DNA of 12,700 bases from an uncultured bacterium (lineage in GTDB: Bacteria; Lernaellota; Lernaellaia; Lernaellales; Lernaellaceae), in assembly GCA_964534375.1 (NCBI GenBank), contig CAZHPN010000171.1, positions 1 through 12,700 of the forward strand. The letters are read 5' to 3'. Shown piece by piece: positions 2,294-12,700 of this stretch (position 1 is its first letter; each line of letters begins with the position of its first letter). The position numbers and the translations under genes were made by a program. The notes below the pieces were generated by a model. It was not told the DNA's origin. It saw only the letters and a list, made by a program, of their open reading frames with translations, and made no database searches.

Positions 2294-4462
2294 GTGATCG
2301 AGAATGCCGCGTCGTCGCCGTTCGAGTCGCGCAGCGTCAACCGAACCGACTTTGTGAAACGCACCATGAGTTCTCAGTTTCGGGCGACGGATGAAATCGC
2401 TTTGGAAAACGAGTCGCTGCGCGGCCGCGTCGCCGAACTGACGGCGCGTCTGGCGGCGCTGGCGCATCTCGACCGGGATTTCGCGGCCGAGCGCGCGTTT
2501 CTGCAAAACATCATCGTTTTGAATCCCTACGCGATTCAGATCCTCGATCGCGACGGCCGGCACGTAATGGCGAACGACGCCTTTCGCGGGCTGTTCGGCG
2601 GCGAGCCGCCGGCCGGTTGGTCGGTGTTGGAGGACGCGCAGATCAACGCGCTGACCGGGCCCGGCGAAGTCCAGAAACTCCGCGACGGAAAGATCCTGCG
2701 GATGTGCGTCGAATCGCCGTTCAACCCGAGCAAATCGTTGCCCAACGACGCCGTCCGGGCGCCCGATCGCACGGTCTGGATCAAGACCGTCGCCTTCCCG
2801 GTGTTCGATGCGCACGGCGAGATCACGCGCTTCGTCGTCATGCACGAAAACATCACCGACCGCAAGCGCGCGGAGCAGTCGCTACGCTCCGCCGAGGGTC
2901 GCTTTCGCTCGCTGATCGAAAAGTCGACCGACCTGATCGCCATCGTGGACGCCGACGGCGCCGCGGTCTACGTAAGCGGGTCGATCGAACCGGTCTTAGG
3001 TTGGACGCCCGAGGAATTGCTCGGCAAGCCGATCATGTCGTTGGTGCACCCCGAAGACCGCGCCCTGGTGAGGGACGGCATGGTCCGTTGCCTGGCGGCG
3101 GTGTCCGGCGAACCGGTTTTCGCCGCGCCGCGCATGCGCCACAAGAACGGCGCCTTCCGGCGCCTGGAGTGCACGGGCCGCAATTTGATCCGCGACGCCA
3201 CCGTCGGCGGTGTGGTGCTCAACGCCCGCGACGTAACGGAGCGGGAAACAGCGCAGGCCCGGCAACAGGCGGTCGAGGCCAAACTTCGTCAGGCGGAGCG
3301 GCTGGATGCTCTCGGCGCCCTTGCCGGCGGCATCGCCCACGATTTCAACACGGTGCTGGCGATCATTCACGGGTTCGCGGAAGAGACGTTGGCCGACGTC
3401 GCGGCGGACTCCGGCGTCGCCCGGAACCAGGAGCAGATCCTGACCGCCGTCAAGCGCGCCCGCGGGCTGGTCGAGCAAATTTTGACTTTCAGCCGCGCGG
3501 AGGCGGGGACGGTCAAACGGCCGGTGGCGATGAACCGCATCGTTCACGAAACGCTGAATATGCTGGCGGGGTGCATCCCGCGCTCGATCAAGATCGTGCG
3601 CCGCCTCGATCCGGCCGCCGGGCACGTCGTGGCCGACCCCAGCGAAATCCAGCAAATCGTGATCAACCTCTGCACCAACGCCCATTTCGCCATGGAGCAG
3701 ACCGGCGGCACGTTGACCGTTTCCGTGGCGCCCGTGCAACTCGCGGCCGGCCAACGCCTCGACGCGCCGCTTGCGCTGGCGGCGGGGTTCTACTGCCGCC
3801 TGACGGTCAGCGACACTGGCAGCGGCATGGACTCGGCGACGATCGCCCGCATCTTCGAGCCATTTTTCACAACCAAGCCGGTCGGCCAAGGCACGGGCAT
3901 GGGCCTGGCGGTCGTTCACGGCATCGTCAAGAGCCACGGCGGCGACATCCTCGTCGAGAGCGGGCCCGGGGAAGGCTCAGCGTTTCACGTTTTTCTGCCG
4001 CAGACTGAAGAAGTGGAGCGCGACGAAATCGAAGAACCCGGCGGCCTGCCGCTCGGCTCGGAACGAATCCTGCTCGTCGACGACCAACTGCAGATGGTCG
4101 CTGTTTACAAAGCCATGCTCGAACGGTTGGGATACCAAGTCACGTGTTTCACGAGCAGCGTGCGGGCGCTGAATGCGTTTCTGAAGAACCTGACCGCCTT
4201 CGATCTCGTGGTGACCGATCAGGTCATGCCGAAATTGACCGGGTTGGCGCTGGCCCGGCGCATCCGCGAACGGCACGCGGACCTGCCGATTCTGCTGACC
4301 AGCGCGCACGAGAAGAAACACATTCTCGACGAAATCGACCGGATCTCGCACGTCCGTTTTTTGCGCAAGCCGTTTTCCAAGCAGGTGTTGGCGACAACGG
4401 TTCGCAAAATGCTCGACCGGCCGGCCGCGCCCGCCGCGGCGCCGCCCCAGGGAAGTGACTAA
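2294..4462 (+). CDS. Cytoplasmic hybrid sensor histidine kinase (coiled coil-PAS-PAS-HisKA-HATPase_c-REC), CckA-like architecture
   Basis: H box LAGGIAHDFN, N box INLCTNA, G1 DTGSGM, F box FEPFFTTK, G2 GTGMGL; receiver ILLVDD...VVTDQVMP...LRKP; PAS motifs (LGWTPEELLG, VHPED). No transmembrane helix evident. Start may be GTG 2294 or ATG 2366. Confidence 0.95.
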   Translation: MIENAASSPFESRSVNRTDFVKRTMSSQFRATDEIALENESLRGRVAELTARLAALAHLDRDFAAERAFLQNIIVLNPYAIQILDRDGRHVMANDAFRGLFGGEPPAGWSVLEDAQINALTGPGEVQKLRDGKILRMCVESPFNPSKSLPNDAVRAPDRTVWIKTVAFPVFDAHGEITRFVVMHENITDRKRAEQSLRSAEGRFRSLIEKSTDLIAIVDADGAAVYVSGSIEPVLGWTPEELLGKPIMSLVHPEDRALVRDGMVRCLAAVSGEPVFAAPRMRHKNGAFRRLECTGRNLIRDATVGGVVLNARDVTERETAQARQQAVEAKLRQAERLDALGALAGGIAHDFNTVLAIIHGFAEETLADVAADSGVARNQEQILTAVKRARGLVEQILTFSRAEAGTVKRPVAMNRIVHETLNMLAGCIPRSIKIVRRLDPAAGHVVADPSEIQQIVINLCTNAHFAMEQTGGTLTVSVAPVQLAAGQRLDAPLALAAGFYCRLTVSDTGSGMDSATIARIFEPFFTTKPVGQGTGMGLAVVHGIVKSHGGDILVESGPGEGSAFHVFLPQTEEVERDEIEEPGGLPLGSERILLVDDQLQMVAVYKAMLERLGYQVTCFTSSVRALNAFLKNLTAFDLVVTDQVMPKLTGLALARRIRERHADLPILLTSAHEKKHILDEIDRISHVRFLRKPFSKQVLATTVRKMLDRPAAPAAAPPQGSD

Positions 4463-4938: not shown

Positions 4939-5038
4939 CATTTTGCGGCTTTTATCCGCGTTTATTGGAAGTTTACCTTGGTCCTCTGCGCGATTTTCGC
5001 GACTCCGTCTCACTTATTCGATCAAAATAACCTCGAAG

Positions 5039-5100
5039 GCGCCCGATTACGCATTTGTTTGGTTGTTTATCCGCGAATGCGCCCGACTACGCATTTGTTT
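5039..5100. repeat. 22-bp direct repeat pair between the two parS sites
   Basis: GCGCCCGATTACGCATTTGTTT (5039-5060) and GCGCCCGACTACGCATTTGTTT (5079-5100): 1 mismatch, 40-bp period. Confidence 0.85.
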
Positions 5101-5131
5101 AGCCGCGAATACACATAAGCGAGACCGCGAA

Positions 5132-5147
5132 TGTTTCACGTGAAACC
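5132..5147. promoter_or_regulatory. parS: parS site (1 mismatch)
   Basis: TGTTTCACGTGAAACC, 15/16 match, 209 bp from the first site. Confidence 0.85.
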
Positions 5148-5198
5148 GCGTAAATTAGCGATATTCGTGGTTTATCATCATTTGCTTATTTGTATAAC

Positions 5199-5270
5199 CG
5201 CGAATGCACGCGAATGCACGCGAATAGGAACGGATATGCGAGCTCATGCTCTTATTCACGCGCATTCGCG
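5199..5270. repeat. REP-like element: tandem 10-bp units followed by an inverted copy
   Basis: CGCGAATGCA x2 plus CGCGAAT (5199-5225), and inverted arm ATTCACGCGCATTCGCG (5254-5270, 2 mismatches). Confidence 0.7.
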
Positions 5271-5765
5271 ATTTGCTGCCATCCTCTGCGGGAACTCCGC
5301 GTCGGAGCCTGCCAAGACGGCAAGGTCCCGAAGCCGAAACCCTCGACATATTTCTCCGCCAGGATCGGCCCGTTCGCCACGAAATAACCGGTTCGCCTCG
5401 TCAACCGATAGCCAGCTTCCGCGGCGTCGTTCGTGTCGTTGGGAAAACCGGCCCCCTCGCTGATGCCGCAGGAACGGAGAGGCTGGCGCGCTTTTCTTCG
5501 CGCTCTTCGCGTCTTTGCGGTGAGAATACCAGAATCACATCCCGGTGGACGCAACGCGGCCGCCGGCGGCAGCCAATGATTTGTGGCGCGGTGCAAAGAA
5601 TTTCGCGGTGGGTATAGTACAGTTCCCCGTATCGGCGTACGGCTCGTCGACCGCGCGCCCCATCTGGTCTGACTCCAGGCGGAGGTGCTCAGGGACGCCC
5701 AACAGACATTAACTTTTGCGCAAACGACGTTCACGCAAGAAAAATCGCCAGCTAACTCTTTTATT

Positions 5766-5911
5766 GCTTGACTTTGTGAAATTTGCGTAGCACTCTTCGG
5801 GACGTGTTGGAAGCTCCGGACTCGGGGCACGGTTACTCTTCATAAAAATAATAAGAGAAAAATAGTTGGTGTCGGTGCCGGGATACGTTTGCGTGGCGAA
5901 AGGAGGGTGCC
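5766..5911 (+). promoter_or_regulatory. Upstream promoter/leader segment of lipoprotein copy 1 (duplicated at 7217-7362)
   Basis: TTGACT at 5768 is exactly 144 bp before the ATG, as in copy 2. Weak -10 (CACTCT) at 17 bp; CTCTT-N12-AAGAG inverted repeat at 5836-5857; AAAGGAGG RBS. Confidence 0.65.
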
Positions 5912-7174
5912 ATGAGAAACGGGTTCTTGGGTGCGCTGGGCTTGTTGATGGCGATGGCCATCGCTTTTTTGGGCGCGTGCGCCCCGTCGAGCAGCAGCGG
6001 CGGAAATCATCCGGCCGACGACGACGCGTCGCCGGCGGATGACGACGCCTCGCCGACGGACGACGACGATAACGACACGACGCCGCCCGCAGACGATGAC
6101 GGCTCGCCAGATGATGACGACAATGACGACACATCGCCGGCCGACGACGACGACAACGACGACAACGACGATAACGACAACGACGACACGACGCCGCCGA
6201 CCGACGACGACAACGACGACGACAGCGCAACGGATGTCTTTGCGGTCGGCGACAATGGAACTATTTTGCACTACGATGGGACAACTTGGTCGCCCATGGC
6301 GAGCGGAACGACCCTTCCGTTACAATGTGTTTGGGGTTCCTCCGGAAGCGATGTCTATGCAGTCGGGGTCGGGACGATAATATATTTTGACGGTTCGGCG
6401 TGGTCGAACGTGCCAAACGTCCCCGAAGCAGGGAACGTGAATTTCGATGGAGTCTGGGGCACTTCGCCATCCGACGTGCTTGCCGTAGGCGGCGACCAAT
6501 CGTCAGGCAGGGCCGTCATCATGCATTACAATGGGACGATGTGGTCGGTTCAGTGGACCGCCGGAGCCTCCCTGGGGCTGTCTCAGTTGAGGGGCGTCTG
6601 GGGAAGCGCCGACTCGGGCGTTTTTGCGGTGGGCGAGTGGTCCCTGGATAATTACCCCCCTTCCCCGCCGGTCACTGGCGGATTTGTTGTCGACAAAGAC
6701 GGCGCTTCCTGGACTACGTCGGCCAACTCGGACATGTTTGGTCCGTTTCTAGCCGTCTGGGGAACCTCCCATTCCGACGTCTTCGCCGTGGGCTGGATTC
6801 CCAATGAAACCGGGAATCCGGGCGGCAATCAAATCGTTCATTACGACGGCGTCTCCTGGTCGGATATGGCCGTGCCGACGCAGGACGTCGCTGCTGTCTA
6901 CGGCATCTGGGGCACATCTTCCTCCGATGTATTTGCAATCGGCCAATATTACAAACTCGCGTTCATTGACCATTACGATGGCTCATCGTGGTCCCAATTG
7001 ATCACGTCGCCTTTTCAATTTCTCGGACTTTGGGGCGGATTCGCGGCGGACGTATTTGTTGTCGGGTGCGACGGCAACGCGGGCCTCATTGTTCACTACG
7101 ACGGTTCGGCGTGGATCACCATGCTTGCCGGGCTGCCAAATCCATTGTGGAGTGTTTGGGGCGTCGCGAAATAA
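5912..7174 (+). CDS. Lipoprotein copy 1: signal peptide II, Asp-rich linker, 7-repeat beta-propeller-like domain
   Basis: Strong RBS; hydrophobic N-terminus with lipobox LGAC (Cys23); poly-Asp/Pro/Thr linker; seven [VIL]WG motifs with recurring WGxSxSDVFAVG...HYDGxxW units. Confidence 0.92.
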   Translation: MRNGFLGALGLLMAMAIAFLGACAPSSSSGGNHPADDDASPADDDASPTDDDDNDTTPPADDDGSPDDDDNDDTSPADDDDNDDNDDNDNDDTTPPTDDDNDDDSATDVFAVGDNGTILHYDGTTWSPMASGTTLPLQCVWGSSGSDVYAVGVGTIIYFDGSAWSNVPNVPEAGNVNFDGVWGTSPSDVLAVGGDQSSGRAVIMHYNGTMWSVQWTAGASLGLSQLRGVWGSADSGVFAVGEWSLDNYPPSPPVTGGFVVDKDGASWTTSANSDMFGPFLAVWGTSHSDVFAVGWIPNETGNPGGNQIVHYDGVSWSDMAVPTQDVAAVYGIWGTSSSDVFAIGQYYKLAFIDHYDGSSWSQLITSPFQFLGLWGGFAADVFVVGCDGNAGLIVHYDGSAWITMLAGLPNPLWSVWGVAK

Positions 7175-7177
7175 TGA

Positions 7178-7219
7178 GTGCAGCCAAACATAGGCGCCAG
7201 CCACTTTTGCGGCGCGGCT
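7178..7219 (+). repeat. Junction motif copy A
   Basis: GTGCAGCCAAACATAGGCGCCAGCCACTTTTGCGGCGCGGCT, 3 bp after the copy 1 stop and directly abutting the duplicated promoter segment. Confidence 0.9.
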
Positions 7220-7362
7220 TGACTTTACGAAATTTGCGTCGCACTCTTCGGGACGTGTTGGAAGCTCCGGACTCGGGGCACGGTTACTCTTCAGAAAAAT
7301 AATAAGAGAAAAATAGTTGGTACGGGCGCTGGGATACGTTTGCGTGGCGAAAGGAGGGCGCC
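7217..7362 (+). promoter_or_regulatory. Upstream promoter/leader segment of lipoprotein copy 2
   Basis: Same length as, and near-identical to, 5766-5911; TTGACT at 7219; AAAGGAGG RBS. Confidence 0.65.
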
Positions 7363-8568
7363 ATGAGAAACGGGTTCTTGGGTGCGCTGGGCTTGTTGAT
7401 GGCGATGGCCATCGCTTTTTTGGGCGCGTGCGCCCCGTCGAGCAGCAGCGGCGGAAATCATCCGGCCGACGACGACGCGTCGCCGGCGGATGACGACGCC
7501 TCGCCGACGGACGACGACGATAACGACACGACGCCGCCGGCAGACGACGACGGTTCGCCGGCTGATGACGATAACGACGACAGTTCGCCCGCGGACGACG
7601 ACGACAACGACGACGACAGCGCAACGGATGTCTTTGCGGTGGGCTTGAACGGCGCGATTGTGCACTACGATGGGGCATCTTGGTCGCCCATGACGAGCGG
7701 GACGCCGAACGATTTAACCGGCATTTGGGGGAACGGCGGCTCCGACGTTTTCGTCGTTGGCTACCCCAGTGTCGTTTTACATTACGATGGTTCCCTTTGG
7801 TCAACCGTGGCAAGCATACCGGATACGGAATACGGCGGCCTTGCCTGCGTCTGGGGAACCTCGCCATCGGATGTGTTTGCGGCAGGCTACGAAGGAGGCC
7901 AAAATGGCGTCATCCTTCATTACGACGGCACCGCGTGGTTAGTTCAGTGGACAGCCGGTGTTTCATTGGGCGTTTCTGAAATACGGGGAGTTTGGGGAAT
8001 CGCCAGCACCAATGATTTTGTCGTCGGCGAATCGAGTGCCAATAATGCCGCGCCCTTTCCTCCGATCGTTAGCGGATTAGTTTTAGACAACAAGAACGGC
8101 TCCTGGACCGAGATGAACAACACCGGGTCCTTGGGCCCGCTTAACGCCGTCTGGGGAACCTCGCAATCGGACGTCTTTGCCGTGGGCTGGATTCCTAACA
8201 GCACGGGTAATCCCGGCGGGAATTTAATCATGCATTATGACGGGCTCTTGTGGTCGAACATGCCGGTTCCGACCGATGACACTGCCTTTGTAGCCGGAAT
8301 CTGGGGTGCATCTTCTTCCGACGCGTTCGCGGTCGGCGCGGATTACGAGGGCGGCTTCGTATTCCGCTACGACGGATCGTCGTGGTCGACAGCGACCAAC
8401 GCCGCCTCCGGCTTGTACGGAATCTGGGGTTCCTCGGCCGCCGATGTGTTTGCCGTCGGCCGGGATAACGACGCGGGTGTGATTCTGCACTACGACGGTT
8501 CGTCGTGGACCACGACGACCGCCGGGTTGTCAAACTCATTAAACGCCGTTTGGGGCGTAAAGCGATAA
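7363..8568 (+). CDS. Lipoprotein copy 2: same head, linker 19 aa shorter, divergent 7-repeat beta-propeller-like domain
   Basis: First 176 nt identical to copy 1; lipobox LGAC; seven [VI]WG motifs; ends VWGVKR versus VWGVAK. Confidence 0.92.
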   Translation: MRNGFLGALGLLMAMAIAFLGACAPSSSSGGNHPADDDASPADDDASPTDDDDNDTTPPADDDGSPADDDNDDSSPADDDDNDDDSATDVFAVGLNGAIVHYDGASWSPMTSGTPNDLTGIWGNGGSDVFVVGYPSVVLHYDGSLWSTVASIPDTEYGGLACVWGTSPSDVFAAGYEGGQNGVILHYDGTAWLVQWTAGVSLGVSEIRGVWGIASTNDFVVGESSANNAAPFPPIVSGLVLDNKNGSWTEMNNTGSLGPLNAVWGTSQSDVFAVGWIPNSTGNPGGNLIMHYDGLLWSNMPVPTDDTAFVAGIWGASSSDAFAVGADYEGGFVFRYDGSSWSTATNAASGLYGIWGSSAADVFAVGRDNDAGVILHYDGSSWTTTTAGLSNSLNAVWGVKR

Positions 8569-8603
8569 CGACACGGTGGCCGAGCCGGCCGCAACGCCTC
8601 AAC

Positions 8604-8641
8604 GTGCCGGCCAAACATAGGTGCCAGCCACTTCTGCGGCG
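8604..8641 (+). repeat. Junction motif copy B
   Basis: GTGCCGGCCAAACATAGGTGCCAGCCACTTCTGCGGCG, between copy 2 and the headless fragment. Confidence 0.9.
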
Positions 8642-8645
8642 GGAC

Positions 8646-9152
8646 CTGCCAAGCGGCACGACAGGCCAGCCGACCGCTGTGTGGGGAAGCTCTTCCTCAA
8701 ACGTGTTCGCCGTTGGCACAGACGCCGTGTATAACGGGTTGGTGTTGCTCTACGACGGAACCTCATGGTCGACGATTGCCGTCATGACCGAAACGAGCTT
8801 GTACGGGATCTGGGGCAACTCTTCCTCGAACGTGTACGCCGTCGGATACACCTCGACGGGAGACTGGGCCGTGATTTTGCACTTCGACGGTTCCTCGTGG
8901 TCCGCGATGCCAAACCAACTGACGGGGGCGAACGGATTGAACGGCGTGTGGGGCAGCGCCCCCTCGGACGTGTTTGCCGTCGGGCCGGATTATTACACGG
9001 GGCCCGTCGTGATTGCGCATTATGACGGTTCGTCGTGGTCGGCGATCGCGACCGGGACCACGGCAAACTTGCAAGGCGTTTGGGGCAGTTCCGCCACGGA
9101 TTTGTTCGCGGTCGGCCAGGGCGGGATCATCCTGCACTACGGGCAAAATTGA
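8646..9152 (+). pseudogene. Headless (5'-truncated or orphan) beta-propeller fragment, 4 repeats
   Basis: Propeller-like sequence (PSGTT..VWGSSSSNVFAVG) starts immediately after the junction motif. No signal peptide, linker or clear RBS. The first ~47 codons of ORF 8505-9152 are non-homologous and partly overlap copy 2 out of frame. Confidence 0.75.
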
Positions 9153-9216
9153 TCCGAGGGAAGACGGCGGCAACGAGATCGCGTTGGGCGGTGGGCAAGG
9201 ATTCGATAACGGCGTT

Positions 9217-9251
9217 GGCCGGCGGCGCCGCCGAGGGCGGTTTCGCCGGCC
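9217..9251. terminator. GC-rich hairpin between convergent genes (possible terminator or REP)
   Basis: GGCCGGCG-gcg-CCGCC-gag-GGCGG-ttt-CGCCGGCC; no U tract. Confidence 0.4.
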
Positions 9252-9293
9252 GGCTCCAAGACCCTTGCTTGTCACGGGTTTCTTTGAGCCTGC

Positions 9294-10979
9294 CTATTCG
9301 GGCGCCCGCCCGCCGAAATCGAAGTATATCGACGCCTGCATATCCCGCGTTTCGAATCGATCGACCAGGCGCGCGTGCGGCGGCACGCCGCAGTCGGCGA
9401 AATTCCGGCGGAAACGCCCGATTTCGCGAGACAGCCAGCCCGTGAGTTTGTGTGCGGAGAACACCGCCCACAACGCCAATCCGGCTTTTGAGTCCACCAC
9501 CACGACCATGAGATTTCGCGTCGCGCCAAAATCGGCCGCCCGGAGGCCTGGTTCCGCGTAGTAGTAAATGCCCGGCTTGCCTTGATCCCAGATCGAGGGC
9601 GGCGTTTCTCCCGGCCAAAATCGGTTGCACTGGCTGAAGCGAAAACCCGCCAAGCGGTGTTGCGCCACGACCGCGGCGACGTGATGGTAGACCGCGACCT
9701 GGTTGTCAACGTTCACCTTGTAACACGGGAACAGCCGCACGGCCGCCGCCGAAATCAGGATGGCAACCGTTGTGACGCCGGTCAGCGCCGCAAAAATCTT
9801 GGCGTGGAACGGACCGTTTTCACGCCAGTTTCGGTAAGGCGGCGACCATTTCGCGTATTGGAAGAACAAGCCGGCGAAATAGCAGAGAAAAGGCGCGGCT
9901 GGAAAAAAATAATGCGTGGGTTCGAAGGTCCAGGCCGTCGTCTGGTAGCGGATAAGGTGCAACGGCAGCATCACGGCGTACGCCAAGAACAGGGCCGAGG
10001 CGCCCCCGATGATGACATGGCGGTCGGTGCGCAGCGTCCGTAGCCAGCGACCGATCTGCAGCAGACTGAGCGCGCCGTAAAGGTTGACGCCGAGGCCGCC
10101 GAGCAGGATGGTCATCACGATGATCGGCAGCGCGGAAAAAGGCAGCGCCCGCAAAGCGCCCCGCGCGCCTCTGAGCAGATCGTCATTCTCGCTCACGTAG
10201 GCGCCGGCGGGCGCCAGGCGCGCCGCCGCTTGCTCGATGAGCGAAACATTGACCGCGGCCAGCGCCGCGACGCCGAGCAGGGTGAGCAGCAACGTCGCCC
10301 GGTCGCGCCAGAACCGCGTAACGATCATCGTGGGCACGATCAATAACACGGCGGACATATGGATTTGCATGGCGATGCCGAGAAACAGCCACGCGGGTGC
10401 GATCGTCCACGTCCGGTCGCGGGCGGACAACGCCAGAAAGCAGAAATAGATCGCGAGGAAAAACGGCAGGTAATAATTGTGCTGGGCGGCGAACGGCGTC
10501 ATCAGAAAATGGAAGGCAAAGGCAGCGGCGGCGAACCACTGGCCTGGGCCGTCGCCGAACAATTGCCGCAGCGCGAAAAAGATCAGCGCCAGCGCAAAGA
10601 TGTCCAACAAGGTAACAAAATAATATTGCGCGCGGAGGTCGCGCGAGATGCGCAGCGGCAGGAGGCTCCAATAATTCGCGAACGAACCAAGGCGAAATCC
10701 GTAACCGACAAGGTTGCCCTGATCGAGCGGCTGACCCGAGTCGAAGTAGTTGATCGTCCGCTTCAAGAAGACGTCGACGTCCCCGTCGACTGCGCGCAGA
10801 TCGAACGCGTGGAAAAGAACTTGCACGGCGAAAAACGACGCGAGACCGGCGATCAACAGGTTGCGCAAACCGCGGGGCGGAACCGCGCCGGCCGACCATG
10901 CGCCGATTCCCCGATTCCCATGTTCGCCGTCTCGCACGTCTCTAATCGTTCCCTCCCGCGCGCCTGCCGGCGTTCGCAA
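9294..10979 (-). CDS. Polytopic membrane protein, probably GT-C fold (ArnT/PMT-like) glycosyltransferase; start uncertain
   Basis: About 10 or more hydrophobic segments; acidic DGDVD loop after the first helix; ArnT-like spacing of motifs (G..LG..A.Y, LGIAMQIHMSA, HYFFPAAPF); soluble C-terminal tail. The TTG start at 10979 is doubtful. Confidence 0.7.
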   Translation of the reverse strand: MRTPAGAREGTIRDVRDGEHGNRGIGAWSAGAVPPRGLRNLLIAGLASFFAVQVLFHAFDLRAVDGDVDVFLKRTINYFDSGQPLDQGNLVGYGFRLGSFANYWSLLPLRISRDLRAQYYFVTLLDIFALALIFFALRQLFGDGPGQWFAAAAFAFHFLMTPFAAQHNYYLPFFLAIYFCFLALSARDRTWTIAPAWLFLGIAMQIHMSAVLLIVPTMIVTRFWRDRATLLLTLLGVAALAAVNVSLIEQAAARLAPAGAYVSENDDLLRGARGALRALPFSALPIIVMTILLGGLGVNLYGALSLLQIGRWLRTLRTDRHVIIGGASALFLAYAVMLPLHLIRYQTTAWTFEPTHYFFPAAPFLCYFAGLFFQYAKWSPPYRNWRENGPFHAKIFAALTGVTTVAILISAAAVRLFPCYKVNVDNQVAVYHHVAAVVAQHRLAGFRFSQCNRFWPGETPPSIWDQGKPGIYYYAEPGLRAADFGATRNLMVVVVDSKAGLALWAVFSAHKLTGWLSREIGRFRRNFADCGVPPHARLVDRFETRDMQASIYFDFGGRAPE

Positions 10980-11298
10980 GCGGCGCTTTCCGCCCGCCGC
11001 CGCGATCGAACTTCTTCGCCGGCTTCGCGCTGCTGAATTCGCGCCGCGACACCTTTCCCGTCGGGCTGGAGGACTGCATTTTTGGCCAGTTTTGGCGGGA
11101 AATCAAGGAACAAAACGAGAAGCGATAGGCAGTTTCCGGCCGCCGGAGCGCAATTGGGGCAAGCGTTCCATCGCGGATTTTCGGTCTTCAAACTCGCGCC
11201 GCAGGTTGTCGAGGGGCTGAGCAGTGTGGGATACTTGCCGCAAGCGAACGCCGGGGGGACGCCGGCGAAGCGCCGCTTTTCGCTACATTGGGGGCGGC

Positions 11299-11430
11299 AT
11301 GACGGAGTTGCATCGCCGGGCGGACCTTGCTGAAAACACACGCGGAGCGCCGCGCCGCGTTTTCTATTTTCTCGCCGCGCTGGTCGCGCTGGTGTATTCG
11401 TTTCGCTTCTTTGTCTACGCCCAAACATAG
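11299..11430 (+). pseudogene. Possible 5' remnant of a membrane-protein gene ending at the junction motif/IS boundary
   Basis: MTELHRRADLAENTRGAPRRVFYFLAALVALVYSFRFFVYAQT*: a charged N-terminus plus one transmembrane helix; the stop is the TAG of CCAAACATAG. Confidence 0.4.
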
Positions 11431-12566
11431 TGTAACGTTACAGTAAAATCTTTACAATTGGCACGGAGTGTGCTATCGTTGGTTTCATGTGGAAACCAGC
11501 CAAACCATTGCCGATGACGGAAGAGCAGCGCAAGACTTTGGACGCCTGGGTGCGCGCCAAGACGTCGCCGCAGCGAATCGTCCTTCGATCCCGGATTTGT
11601 CTGCTCGCGGCGGCGGGCGTTTCCCATAACGCCATTGCCAAAAAACTGGGCACTTCTCGCCCCACCGTTTTGTTGTGGACGGACCGCTTTCGGGGTCAAG
11701 GTCCTGCGGGTCTGGCGGAAGATGCGCCGCATGGACCCAGTGCCCGCAGTCTGACTGCCGCAAAGATCAACGCGGTCGTGGAAGCGACACTTCACACGAC
11801 GCCCAAGGACGCCACCCACTGGTCGACGCGGACCATGGCCCGCGCCATGGGCGTCAGCAACGCCACGGTGTCCCGCATCTGGGACGCGCATGGCTTGCAG
11901 CCGCATCGCGTGCGGGGATTCAAGCTCTCGAAAGACAAACGTTTTGTCGAGAAGTTGACGGACGTCGTCGGCGTTTACCTGAATCCACCGGACAAAGCCG
12001 TGGTGTTGTGTATGGACGAAAAGACGCAAATTCAGGCGCTGGACCGGACGCAGCCGGGTTTGCCGTTGAAGAAAGGTCGCTGCGGCACGATGACGCACGA
12101 TTACCAGCGCAACGGGACGACCTGCCTGTTCGCCGCCTTGAATGTGCTGGAGGGCAAGGTCATCGGTTCCTGTTATCCGAGACACCGAAACATCGAATTC
12201 CGGAAATTCCTGCACCAGATCGATCGCGCCGTCCCCCCCGAGTCAGACATTCACATGATCCTGGACAATTACGGCACGCACAACCATCCAAAGGTCAAAG
12301 CGTGGTTGGAAAAGCATCCCCGCTTTCATCTGCACTTCACGCCGACCAGTGCGTCTTGGCTGAATCTTGTGGAACGATGGTTCGGCGAGATCACGCGAAA
12401 ACGAATCCGGCGAGGGGTGTTTCGCAGCGTTCAGGAACTCATCAGCGCAATTGAAGACTACATCCGGGGCAACAACGAAAATCCCAAACCGTTCGTCTGG
12501 ACGAAAAAGGTCGAAGCCATCTTAGAAAAGACCGCTCGTTGTAAAGCCGTCATTGAAACAGTACAA
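11430..12566 (+). mobile_element. IS630-family insertion sequence (~1137 bp) with TA target duplication
   Basis: TA at 11428-11429 and 12567-12568. Imperfect terminal IRs: GTGTAACGTTACA versus the reverse complement of the right end, TTGTACTGTTTCA. Removing the element restores CCAAACATAGGTGC, matching the junction motif. Confidence 0.93.
11451..11479 (+). promoter_or_regulatory. Transposase promoter
   Basis: TTTACA (11451-11456), 17 bp, TATCGT (11474-11479) with extended -10 TG at 11471-11472. Confidence 0.6.
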
Positions 12567-12569
12567 TAG
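11487..12569 (+). CDS. IS630-family DDE transposase, intact single ORF
   Basis: N-terminal HTH; THWSTRTMA, CMDEKTQIQALDR, MILDNYGTH, HFTPTSASWLNLVERWF, NENPKPFVWTK motifs; the stop codon uses the duplicated TA. Confidence 0.97.
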   Translation: MWKPAKPLPMTEEQRKTLDAWVRAKTSPQRIVLRSRICLLAAAGVSHNAIAKKLGTSRPTVLLWTDRFRGQGPAGLAEDAPHGPSARSLTAAKINAVVEATLHTTPKDATHWSTRTMARAMGVSNATVSRIWDAHGLQPHRVRGFKLSKDKRFVEKLTDVVGVYLNPPDKAVVLCMDEKTQIQALDRTQPGLPLKKGRCGTMTHDYQRNGTTCLFAALNVLEGKVIGSCYPRHRNIEFRKFLHQIDRAVPPESDIHMILDNYGTHNHPKVKAWLEKHPRFHLHFTPTSASWLNLVERWFGEITRKRIRRGVFRSVQELISAIEDYIRGNNENPKPFVWTKKVEAILEKTARCKAVIETVQ

Positions 12570-12627
12570 GTGCTGCCAAACGTAGGTGCTGCCAAACGTA
12601 GGTGCCAGCCACTTTTGCGGCGCGGCT
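12567..12627 (+). repeat. Junction motif copy C with tandem expansion of a 16-bp unit
   Basis: TAGGTGCTGCCAAACG x2, then TAGGTGCCAGCCACTTTTGCGGCGCGGCT; the left part of the first unit (CCAAACA) lies at 11421-11427, across the IS. Confidence 0.9.
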
Positions 12628-12648
12628 GCGTGGCGAAAGGAGGGCGCC

Positions 12649-12700
12649 ATGAGAAACGGGTTCTTGGGTGCGCTGGGCTTGTTGATGGCGATGGCCATCG
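12649..12700 (+). CDS. Lipoprotein copy 4 (partial; runs off the window end)
   Basis: AAAGGAGG RBS, then 52 nt identical to the starts of copies 1 and 2 (MRNGFLGALGLLMAMAI). Confidence 0.88.
   Translation, partial: MRNGFLGALGLLMAMAI

Follow-up and report, generated by a model that had tools for sequence, protein, structure and literature searches.

In the systems called TIRtrons or TIRYTs, a Y1 transposase gene is accompanied by inverted repeats that are not repetitive extragenic palindromic (REP) sequences and that can form moderately abundant families, as the relevant sections of Di Nocera et al. (2013, PMC3733652) describe them. Insertion sequences (IS) of the IS200/IS605 kind, as tabulated in Quentin (2018, PMC6006769, Table 1), carry asymmetric subterminal hairpins and no inverted repeats. 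The subject here is a repeated 32-nt motif in a contig of an uncultured bacterium of the Lernaellaceae (CAZHPN010000171.1, assembly GCA_964534375.1). The window, the whole 12,700-nt stretch that was analysed, is all of that contig, which is C171 in a genome bin (G000) of 6.3 Mb and 381 contigs, and the end of the contig falls inside a repeat. The motif occurs in three copies (A, B and C), all pointing one way, and a propeller lipoprotein gene follows closely on the 3' side of each. I conclude with high confidence that it is the solo end of a family of Y1-transposase elements resembling those of REP-associated tyrosine transposases (RAYTs) and TIRYTs. An odd junction motif is thereby explained as part of a mobile-element system, and the linked recombinase has been located.

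A dispersed family of ends and its transposase gene

The preliminary description of the window listed three copies of the motif in direct orientation. A search with its pattern, allowing up to three mismatches, gives exactly those three in the 12,700 bases (7183-7214, 8610-8641 and 12591-12622, all on the + strand) and none in 200 dinucleotide-preserving shuffles of the window. The copies are 1427 and 3981 nt apart and agree at 30-31 of 32 positions. Three parts make up the motif: a left part specific to this locus (GCCAAACRTAG), a core found throughout the genome (GGYGCCAGCCACTT) and a tail (YTGCGGCG). Copy A (7178-7219) opens with a degenerate unit, which is followed by the unit GCCAAACATAGGCGCC and by core and tail together (AGCCACTTTTGCGGCGCGGCT); its family core is at 7192-7206. 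Copy B (8605-8641) has its core at 8619-8633 and the tail CTGCGGCG. Copy C is an array (12567-12627) made of the remainder of a first unit (TAGGTGCT), a second unit (12575-12590), and a third that includes core and tail (12591-12627). Copies A and B have one outer unit each and copy C three. Copy A and the last part of copy C (12586-12627) can be aligned over 42 nt at 93% identity (repeat family D14).

The full 32-mer is found on no other contig of the genome, even with up to six substitutions. The core is another matter. Its pattern, G[CT]GCCAGCCAC[CT]T, has 50 exact copies, and with one filtered mismatch the core of a motif that had been taken from a single contig turns out to belong to a family of 58 copies on 30 contigs. 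Two of these (one on C32 and one at C276:2616) lie inside open reading frames (ORFs) and may be chance matches. The 11-mer GCCAGCCACTT occurs 56 times, as against 0-30 for ten shuffled 11-mers, and the 17-mer GGYGCCAGCCACTTCGG occurs 29 times in this genome, never when read backwards, and never in 40 other genomes, which include none of the same genus. Every family copy starts with a left part that varies and is about 10 nt long; the core comes next, and last a tail, which reads CGGA... in type I and YTGCGGCG in type II, to which the window copies belong. In 27 of the 58 copies one to three more units of 12-17 nt stand directly upstream, each a left part, a variable stretch of 8-10 nt, followed by AGGYGC.

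Solitary copies number about 24, from about 12 loci, and 16 of the 21 examined fall outside crude gene calls. The family is therefore extragenic, dispersed and lineage-specific in the manner of canonical REP sequences, the 17-mer being present in 1 of 41 genomes. Where copies cluster (C42, C120, C171, C276, C277 and C300) all are direct; the only inverted pairs are those that surround the Y1 gene described below. An enrichment beside propeller genes was considered, and at 2 of about 12 solitary loci it is too weak to claim.

Then there is the evidence of the gene itself. On contig C35, a perfect inverted repeat of 24 nt (GGCAAAAGGCGCCAGCCACTTCGG), which includes the core, encloses an ORF of 316 amino acids (aa). 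The product passes the gathering cut-off of Pfam Y1_Tnp (PF01797; 25.7 bits, cut-off 23), and its best NCBIfam match is the REP-associated tyrosine transposase (REP_Tyr_transpos), at 50.9, below the cut-off of 80. Residues S66, N67 and H68 of the HuH motif (SNH-L-H) and the tyrosine Y128 are invariant in all five aligned proteins. The tyrosine motif is Y-L-L-S-x-G (Y128-L-L-S-Q-G in this protein), with no N-P, and the protein carries a long C-terminal extension. No solved structure matching it by sequence was found. The ORFs of at least 150 aa listed for the locus all overlap one another, in different frames of the transposase region and its flanks, and none is a second gene in its own right; no homology search was made for tnpB, which often accompanies IS200/IS605 transposases. 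The preliminary description had proposed looking for a recombinase linked to the motif, and this Y1/HUH gene, flanked by inverted copies of the family core, is one. The left part was also considered as a target-site duplication and rejected: it is inverted on C35, so it belongs to the inverted repeat, and the ends differ in loci L026 and L027.

How many such elements the genome holds must be pieced together. By tblastn, the Y1 gene is present once in full, once with an internal deletion (C242) and eight times as a fragment at the end of a contig; these fragments start at aa 250-266. From 27 of the 58 motif copies, the sequence runs on into homology with the interior of the Y1 element. When distinct 5' and 3' sides are counted, the element comes to roughly ten copies. 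Breaks inside Y1 elements are common among the contigs; the element interior is collapsed in the assembly. Twelve contigs (C42, C55, C93, C179, C225, C228, C250, C314, C67, C101, C268 and C300) end 27-430 nt inward of a motif copy.

Some other observations concern the same system. A distant second Y1-like gene (C380:1155-1418, 30% identity) lies near a second repeat family of about 31-37 nt (GGGAGCGCCGACGCCC...CGTCGGCGAC, with inverted copies), which adjoins type II ends at C268:5780-5929 and C380:470-640, and there is a third Y1-like gene at C59:17867-18115. C201:1-870 contains two successive segments, about 379 nt apart, each made of a Y1 3' fragment (aa about 261-316) and a type II end; the arrangement reflects either a tandem duplication with the end as its boundary or the assembly.

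The end is conserved in distant relatives. Beside Y1 homologues of 45-51% identity (L011, L013 and L016), arrays of the form [CCAAxxAGGTG]n followed by CCA face inward on both sides of the gene, and terminal inverted repeats surround the Y1 gene in L011 and L016 as well. A wider scan covered the first 66 of 68 metagenome loci (L025-L090), from which five at identities of at least 77% were set aside to leave 61 distant ones. Flanks were counted only if at least 300 nt were available, and GGTGCCA was sought within 450 nt, where it is expected by chance at about 0.03 per flank. Facing inward, it was found in 30 of 40 5' flanks and 17 of 37 3' flanks; facing outward, the control, in 1 of 40 and 2 of 37. 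Iterated units, conservatively detected, were present in seven of the 5' and four of the 3' flanks. Together the 61 distant loci and the five near-identical ones indicate an element family that is widespread in uncultivated bacteria. The genome G016, that of a relative, has one Y1 copy and no dispersed ends (15 matches, against 20 for a control), so the expansion is particular to the G000 genome. In L011, the whole Y1 element with its arrays of units lies between two direct host repeats of 246 nt (993-1238 and 2774-3019, 91% identical), with a third, partial copy upstream: again an element between tandem paralogous segments.

Might the motif instead be a regulatory element of the host, an operator, promoter element, terminator or mRNA-stabilizing hairpin that was multiplied through gene paralogy? 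Each copy does lie just 5' of a propeller gene, as already noted, and on C277 the distance from a family member to the start of a propeller gene downstream is about 33 nt. It is too much to expect of such an element, however, that about half of the family should flank the transposase gene rather than host genes, that the same core should appear beside Y1 genes in unrelated metagenome organisms, and that copy B should precede a gene fragment with no start. Nor does the motif fold as a hairpin would. The three window copies, on both strands, give z scores of -0.65 to +0.72 against shuffles, and the single-stranded DNA of the family does no better than random windows (mean z -0.75 for 50 copies, -0.51 for 100 random windows). 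No terminator-like site was found at any copy in the window, and an Rfam scan of the whole window, at E values up to 1, gave only two chance-level matches, both away from the motif. I regard the regulatory reading as very improbable.

The same results bear out two earlier judgments, that the motif forms no strong palindrome and that it fits neither attC nor CRISPR: it does not fold, its spacing is irregular, and Rfam does not recognize it. An attC site would be an imperfect palindrome with R/L boxes beside an integrase, and CRISPR repeats would be evenly spaced, with unique spacers and with cas genes. The only recombinase among the window ORFs scanned is an IS630 transposase; no dedicated integrase or cas search was made. 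Two further candidates were dropped. Stems drawn by hand between left part and tail, with apparent covariation (e.g. CAGNGGT/ACTNCTG on C201, C300 and C120), are confined to some type II copies, and the spacing is unsuitable, by eye, for a sigma-54 promoter.

Origin of the junctions in the propeller array

I propose that an element end in this family consists of one or more of the outer units, the core and the short tail, and that a whole element would have two such ends facing inward around the Y1/HUH transposase gene, in the TIRtron arrangement. The window would then contain three intact solo ends and one decayed one, the transposase gene lying elsewhere in the genome. The solo ends would have spread locally by duplication or gene conversion, together with the gene head (promoter, signal peptide and acidic linker). 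Two deletions of different lengths would have followed, each from the inner edge of an end (copies C and B), and later an unrelated IS630 element would have entered copy C at a TA of its outermost unit. The data show the family, its tie to the Y1 gene, the conserved end in distant relatives, the common local origin, the breakpoints and the IS630 insertion. An action of the Y1 enzyme on these ends, and the sequence of events, I infer; taken whole, the explanation seems to me probable.

The left parts tell where the window copies came from. These copies share 9-10 of 10 left positions with one another, while the best match elsewhere in the genome shares 7 of 10. Across the whole genome, left parts agree at 6.9 of 10 positions on average within a locus and at 3.9 of 10 between loci. 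A shared, locus-specific left part means that the window copies descend from one local ancestor and are not three insertions. There is also a fourth copy, decayed, at 5745-5767 on the + strand (TCGCCAGCTAACTCTTTTATTGC), directly 5' of the promoter of gene 1, where none had been noticed before. Its homology is judged by alignment: it keeps CGCCAGC, A.CT and TT, and its distance to TTGACT is the same as that of copy A, the significance being a rough estimate only. It suggests an ancestral unit composed of end, promoter and gene.

The array begins with head module 1 (promoter region, signal peptide of the lipoprotein and first part of the acidic linker; 5766-6166, + strand; repeat family D4, 97%), which belongs to propeller lipoprotein gene 1 (5912-7174, + strand, 420 aa) and matches 7217-7617 at 94.5% over 401 nt. 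Head module 2 (promoter, signal peptide and acidic linker; 7217-7640, + strand) belongs to gene 2 (7363-8568, + strand, 401 aa). The blade repeats make up families D1-D9. The gene bodies are about 66% identical and the heads 94-100%, next to the 30-31 of 32 positions of the motif copies, a pattern that points to recent conversion or re-duplication of end and head together.

All three breakpoints that had been placed at the ends of the copies stand. Copy A ends where homology to the gene-1 promoter begins (7217, corresponding to 5766). Copy B ends where the headless propeller begins, its blades starting at about 8668, 27 nt past the copy. This propeller (8668-9152, + strand) has four blades without promoter, signal peptide or linker and is probably a 5'-truncated pseudogene; its ORF extends from 8505 to 9152, of which the part before 8668 only reads through the motif and, in a different frame, through the last stretch of gene 2. 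Copy C ends at the breakpoint of the deleted promoter segment. What follows, 12627-12700 on the + strand, up to the end of the contig, is the 5' untranslated region, with ribosome-binding site, and the first codons of a propeller gene 3. It is identical to 7341-7414 (100%, repeat family D10), so copy C lacks the 121 nt (7220-7340) that follow copy A.

Is the motif, then, the cause of these junctions? One may suppose that it is an active recombination site, cut by the Y1 enzyme, and that one-ended or end-to-end events there delete, duplicate and move the adjacent DNA. Several observations speak for this. The two deletions, one of 121 nt after copy C and the other, after copy B, of a promoter and about half a gene, both begin exactly at the inner edge of the motif, and deletions of that kind are typical of transposase-mediated adjacent deletion, which is a possible mechanism here. 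Homology between the contexts of A and C sets in precisely at the motif's outer edge. Outer units vary in number, both in the window (1, 1 and 3) and in the family. Tandem duplications occur on the right side of the core on C41 and C42, the motif is better conserved than its surroundings, and the genome has its ten or so copies of the Y1 gene. Against this, ordinary duplication and conversion are in keeping with a left part specific to the locus and with the decayed copy that precedes gene 1. On C276 four copies lie 364-703 nt apart and the spacers between them are unrelated, which means that duplications do not generally go with the family; motif-bounded duplication was rejected as a general rule. 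Moreover, the best-supported 15 of 132 joints in contigs of four public runs lie in blade or acidic repeats; none of them is at a motif or joins motif to motif, although contigs drop rare variants. On balance I consider it doubtful that the motif caused the junctions. The preliminary description had raised the idea of a REP- or MITE-like element (a miniature inverted-repeat transposable element) that catalyses rearrangements. Its first half holds up, in that the family is tied to a RAYT-like Y1 gene with inverted flanks; catalysis is hypothetical, and the shared left part and the decayed copy fit co-duplication or conversion with the gene heads.

The tandem duplications on the inner side of the core deserve mention in their own right. 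They are found at C41:32583-32625, C42:7987-8030 and C310:3880-3915 (AGCCACTTCGGAT twice; GCCACCTCGGAGCG twice) and mirror the iterated units on the outer side.

A bolder form of the idea is that the GGTGCCA-type end is a working one-ended substrate of an uncharacterised clade of long Y1 proteins, and that a "stutter" of cutting and rejoining makes the outer units and deletes or copies the DNA at the inner edge. I think this rather unlikely. If it were so, heads with promoter and signal peptide would be shuffled among a very large family of propeller lipoproteins, and the solo ends would be a built-in engine of surface-protein diversification, not passive scars. The family in question (aspartate-rich linker plus HYDG/W blades) is hugely expanded in this genome (e.g. 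on C239, C210, C44, C365 and C332), and a tblastn search with gene 2 matches dozens of contigs, often with several genes per contig.

It might still be argued that the motif has nothing to do with mobile elements and is intergenic flanking DNA that was passively co-duplicated, or that its placement is an artefact of assembly at repeat boundaries. The extended 32-mer is, after all, restricted to this contig, and the contig ends in a repeat. The window was compared with contigs (not reads) from four public wetland runs, one of which may be the source of the DNA. Contigs of other samples run without differences across all three copies, the two IS junctions and the join at 12627 (X2 records 12 and 15; X3 records 21 and 24), that join being confirmed by an independent contig (X3 record 24). 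The reading was already contradicted by a core that forms a genome-wide family tied to the Y1 gene and by these public contigs, and is barely credible.

The explanation by solo ends that spread with the gene heads has its own difficulties. The motif is kept far better than the gene bodies, and passive co-duplication alone is insufficient for that; recent conversion, selection or activity is needed. The origin of the solo ends is left without explanation. The window holds neither a Y1 gene nor an inverted partner end, and all its copies are direct and so do not form pairs like those of REPINs or MITEs. The fourth copy is a modest match. The count of Y1 elements comes from a fragmented bin of 381 contigs, in which repeat-bearing contigs can be mis-binned. 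Finally, with no palindrome in the ends, the recognition of single-stranded hairpins practised by IS200/IS605 and by E. coli TnpA-REP cannot simply be assumed. How a Y1 protein recognizes ends that lack hairpins becomes a testable question.

The IS630 insertion and the neighbouring genes

A split unit of the motif had been noted near 11421. It is real: the outermost unit of copy C is interrupted at a TA by an element of the IS630 family (11430-12566, + strand, 1137 bp; transposase ORF 11487-12569), with TA duplications at 11428-11429 and 12567-12568. The left half of the unit, GCCCAAACA plus the target TA (11419-11429, + strand), and the right half, TA-GGTGCT (12567-12574), are halves of one 16-nt unit, and removal of the element in silico restores GCCCAAACATAGGTGCT, a unit like those at 12575 and 12591. 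The transposase scores 275 bits against NCBIfam transpos_IS630 (cut-off 100) and matches Pfam DDE_3 and HTH_23. The element thus has the features of its family: DDE_3 with an N-terminal helix-turn-helix, a TA target duplication, and terminal inverted repeats, which are imperfect (19 of 30, counted by eye). It is present in a single copy in the bin, and the same insertion is seen in contigs from other samples (X2 record 15; X3 records 21 and 24). A promoter-like TTGTAA-17-TACAAT at 12539-12567 (a consensus match only), at its right end, faces copy C and gene 3. Gene 3 has lost its own promoter, and this outward pair could drive it.

To the left of copy C, the preliminary description saw a membrane ORF cut off by the motif. 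That does not survive: the + strand ORF ending at 11430 is only 68 aa long and retains its TAG with or without the IS630 element. The region's real membrane gene encodes a polytopic protein of 561 aa on the opposite strand (9294-10979, - strand; G+C content at third codon positions 0.78), for which no Pfam family was found. At the other side of the array, in a long gap that separates a response-regulator gene from gene 1, three to four AT-richer repeats of 33-35 nt occupy 5028-5213 (families D18 and D19), with the consensus TA[AT]CC[TG]CGAA[GT]GCGCCCGA[TC]TACGCATTTGTTT, and CATTTG.T..TTGT.TA.CCGCGAATGC.

For annotation, motifs of this sort are useful as flags: they mark where contigs break, where pseudogenes are bounded and which gene heads have recently been converted.

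Comparison with known systems

With REP/RAYT systems (REPtrons), the family shares short extragenic repeats that are confined to one lineage and inverted around a Y1 gene, features given in the relevant parts of Bertels (2017, PMC5581495) and Quentin (2018, PMC6006769), and the protein's best NCBIfam match is of that kind. It departs from them in several respects. The RAYTs of class 2 (TnpA-REP), by the class definitions in PMC6006769, have Y---NP where this protein, which does have HuH, has Y-L-L-S-x-G, and among the tyrosine-motif classes defined there its motif fits none. The long C-terminal extension of the 316-aa protein is a further difference from RAYTs as these are portrayed there, and so is the presence of the gene in multiple copies, typical RAYTs being single-copy. 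Canonical REPs have a stable hairpin and these ends do not, nor do they have a conserved GT[AG]G foot: the window copies read ATAG or GTAG, and over 50 copies the position carries little information (AAAG, GAAG, ACAG, AGTG, CGATG and others). The copies are not inverted pairs with a short spacer, as in REPINs.

Like IS200/IS605, the family has a Y1 HUH transposase (Pfam Y1_Tnp) in multiple copies per genome, but its ends are inverted repeats without significant hairpins, the reverse of what Table 1 of PMC6006769 gives for those elements. A MITE has two inverted ends and a target-site duplication around a short non-coding body, whereas each window copy is a single end, direct with respect to the others and 1.4-4 kb away from the next. 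REP sequences were reportedly found at the join points of tandem duplications by Shyamala et al. in 1990, as cited in PMC7661048. The likeness is that a short dispersed repeat bounds duplicated segments; the difference is that the window copies share a private local variant, and recombination between them is hypothetical.

The closest described kind is the TIRtron/TIRYT of PMC3733652. In both, a Y1/HUH gene lies within inverted repeats unrelated to GTAG REPs, and in both, the repeats are also dispersed through the genome, moderately abundant, and single or clustered. The end is GGTGCCA here and, in the majority type presented there, GGGGWSAS. The iterated outer units of 11-16 nt have no counterpart in the descriptions of repeat types that PMC3733652 gives, and the ten or so gene copies of this genome are another point of difference from the elements portrayed there. 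An end of GGTGCCA with iterated short units, together with a Y1 protein bearing Y-L-L-S-x-G, is thus best placed, as far as that account of the repeat types extends, as a variant of TIRtron/TIRYT-like systems.

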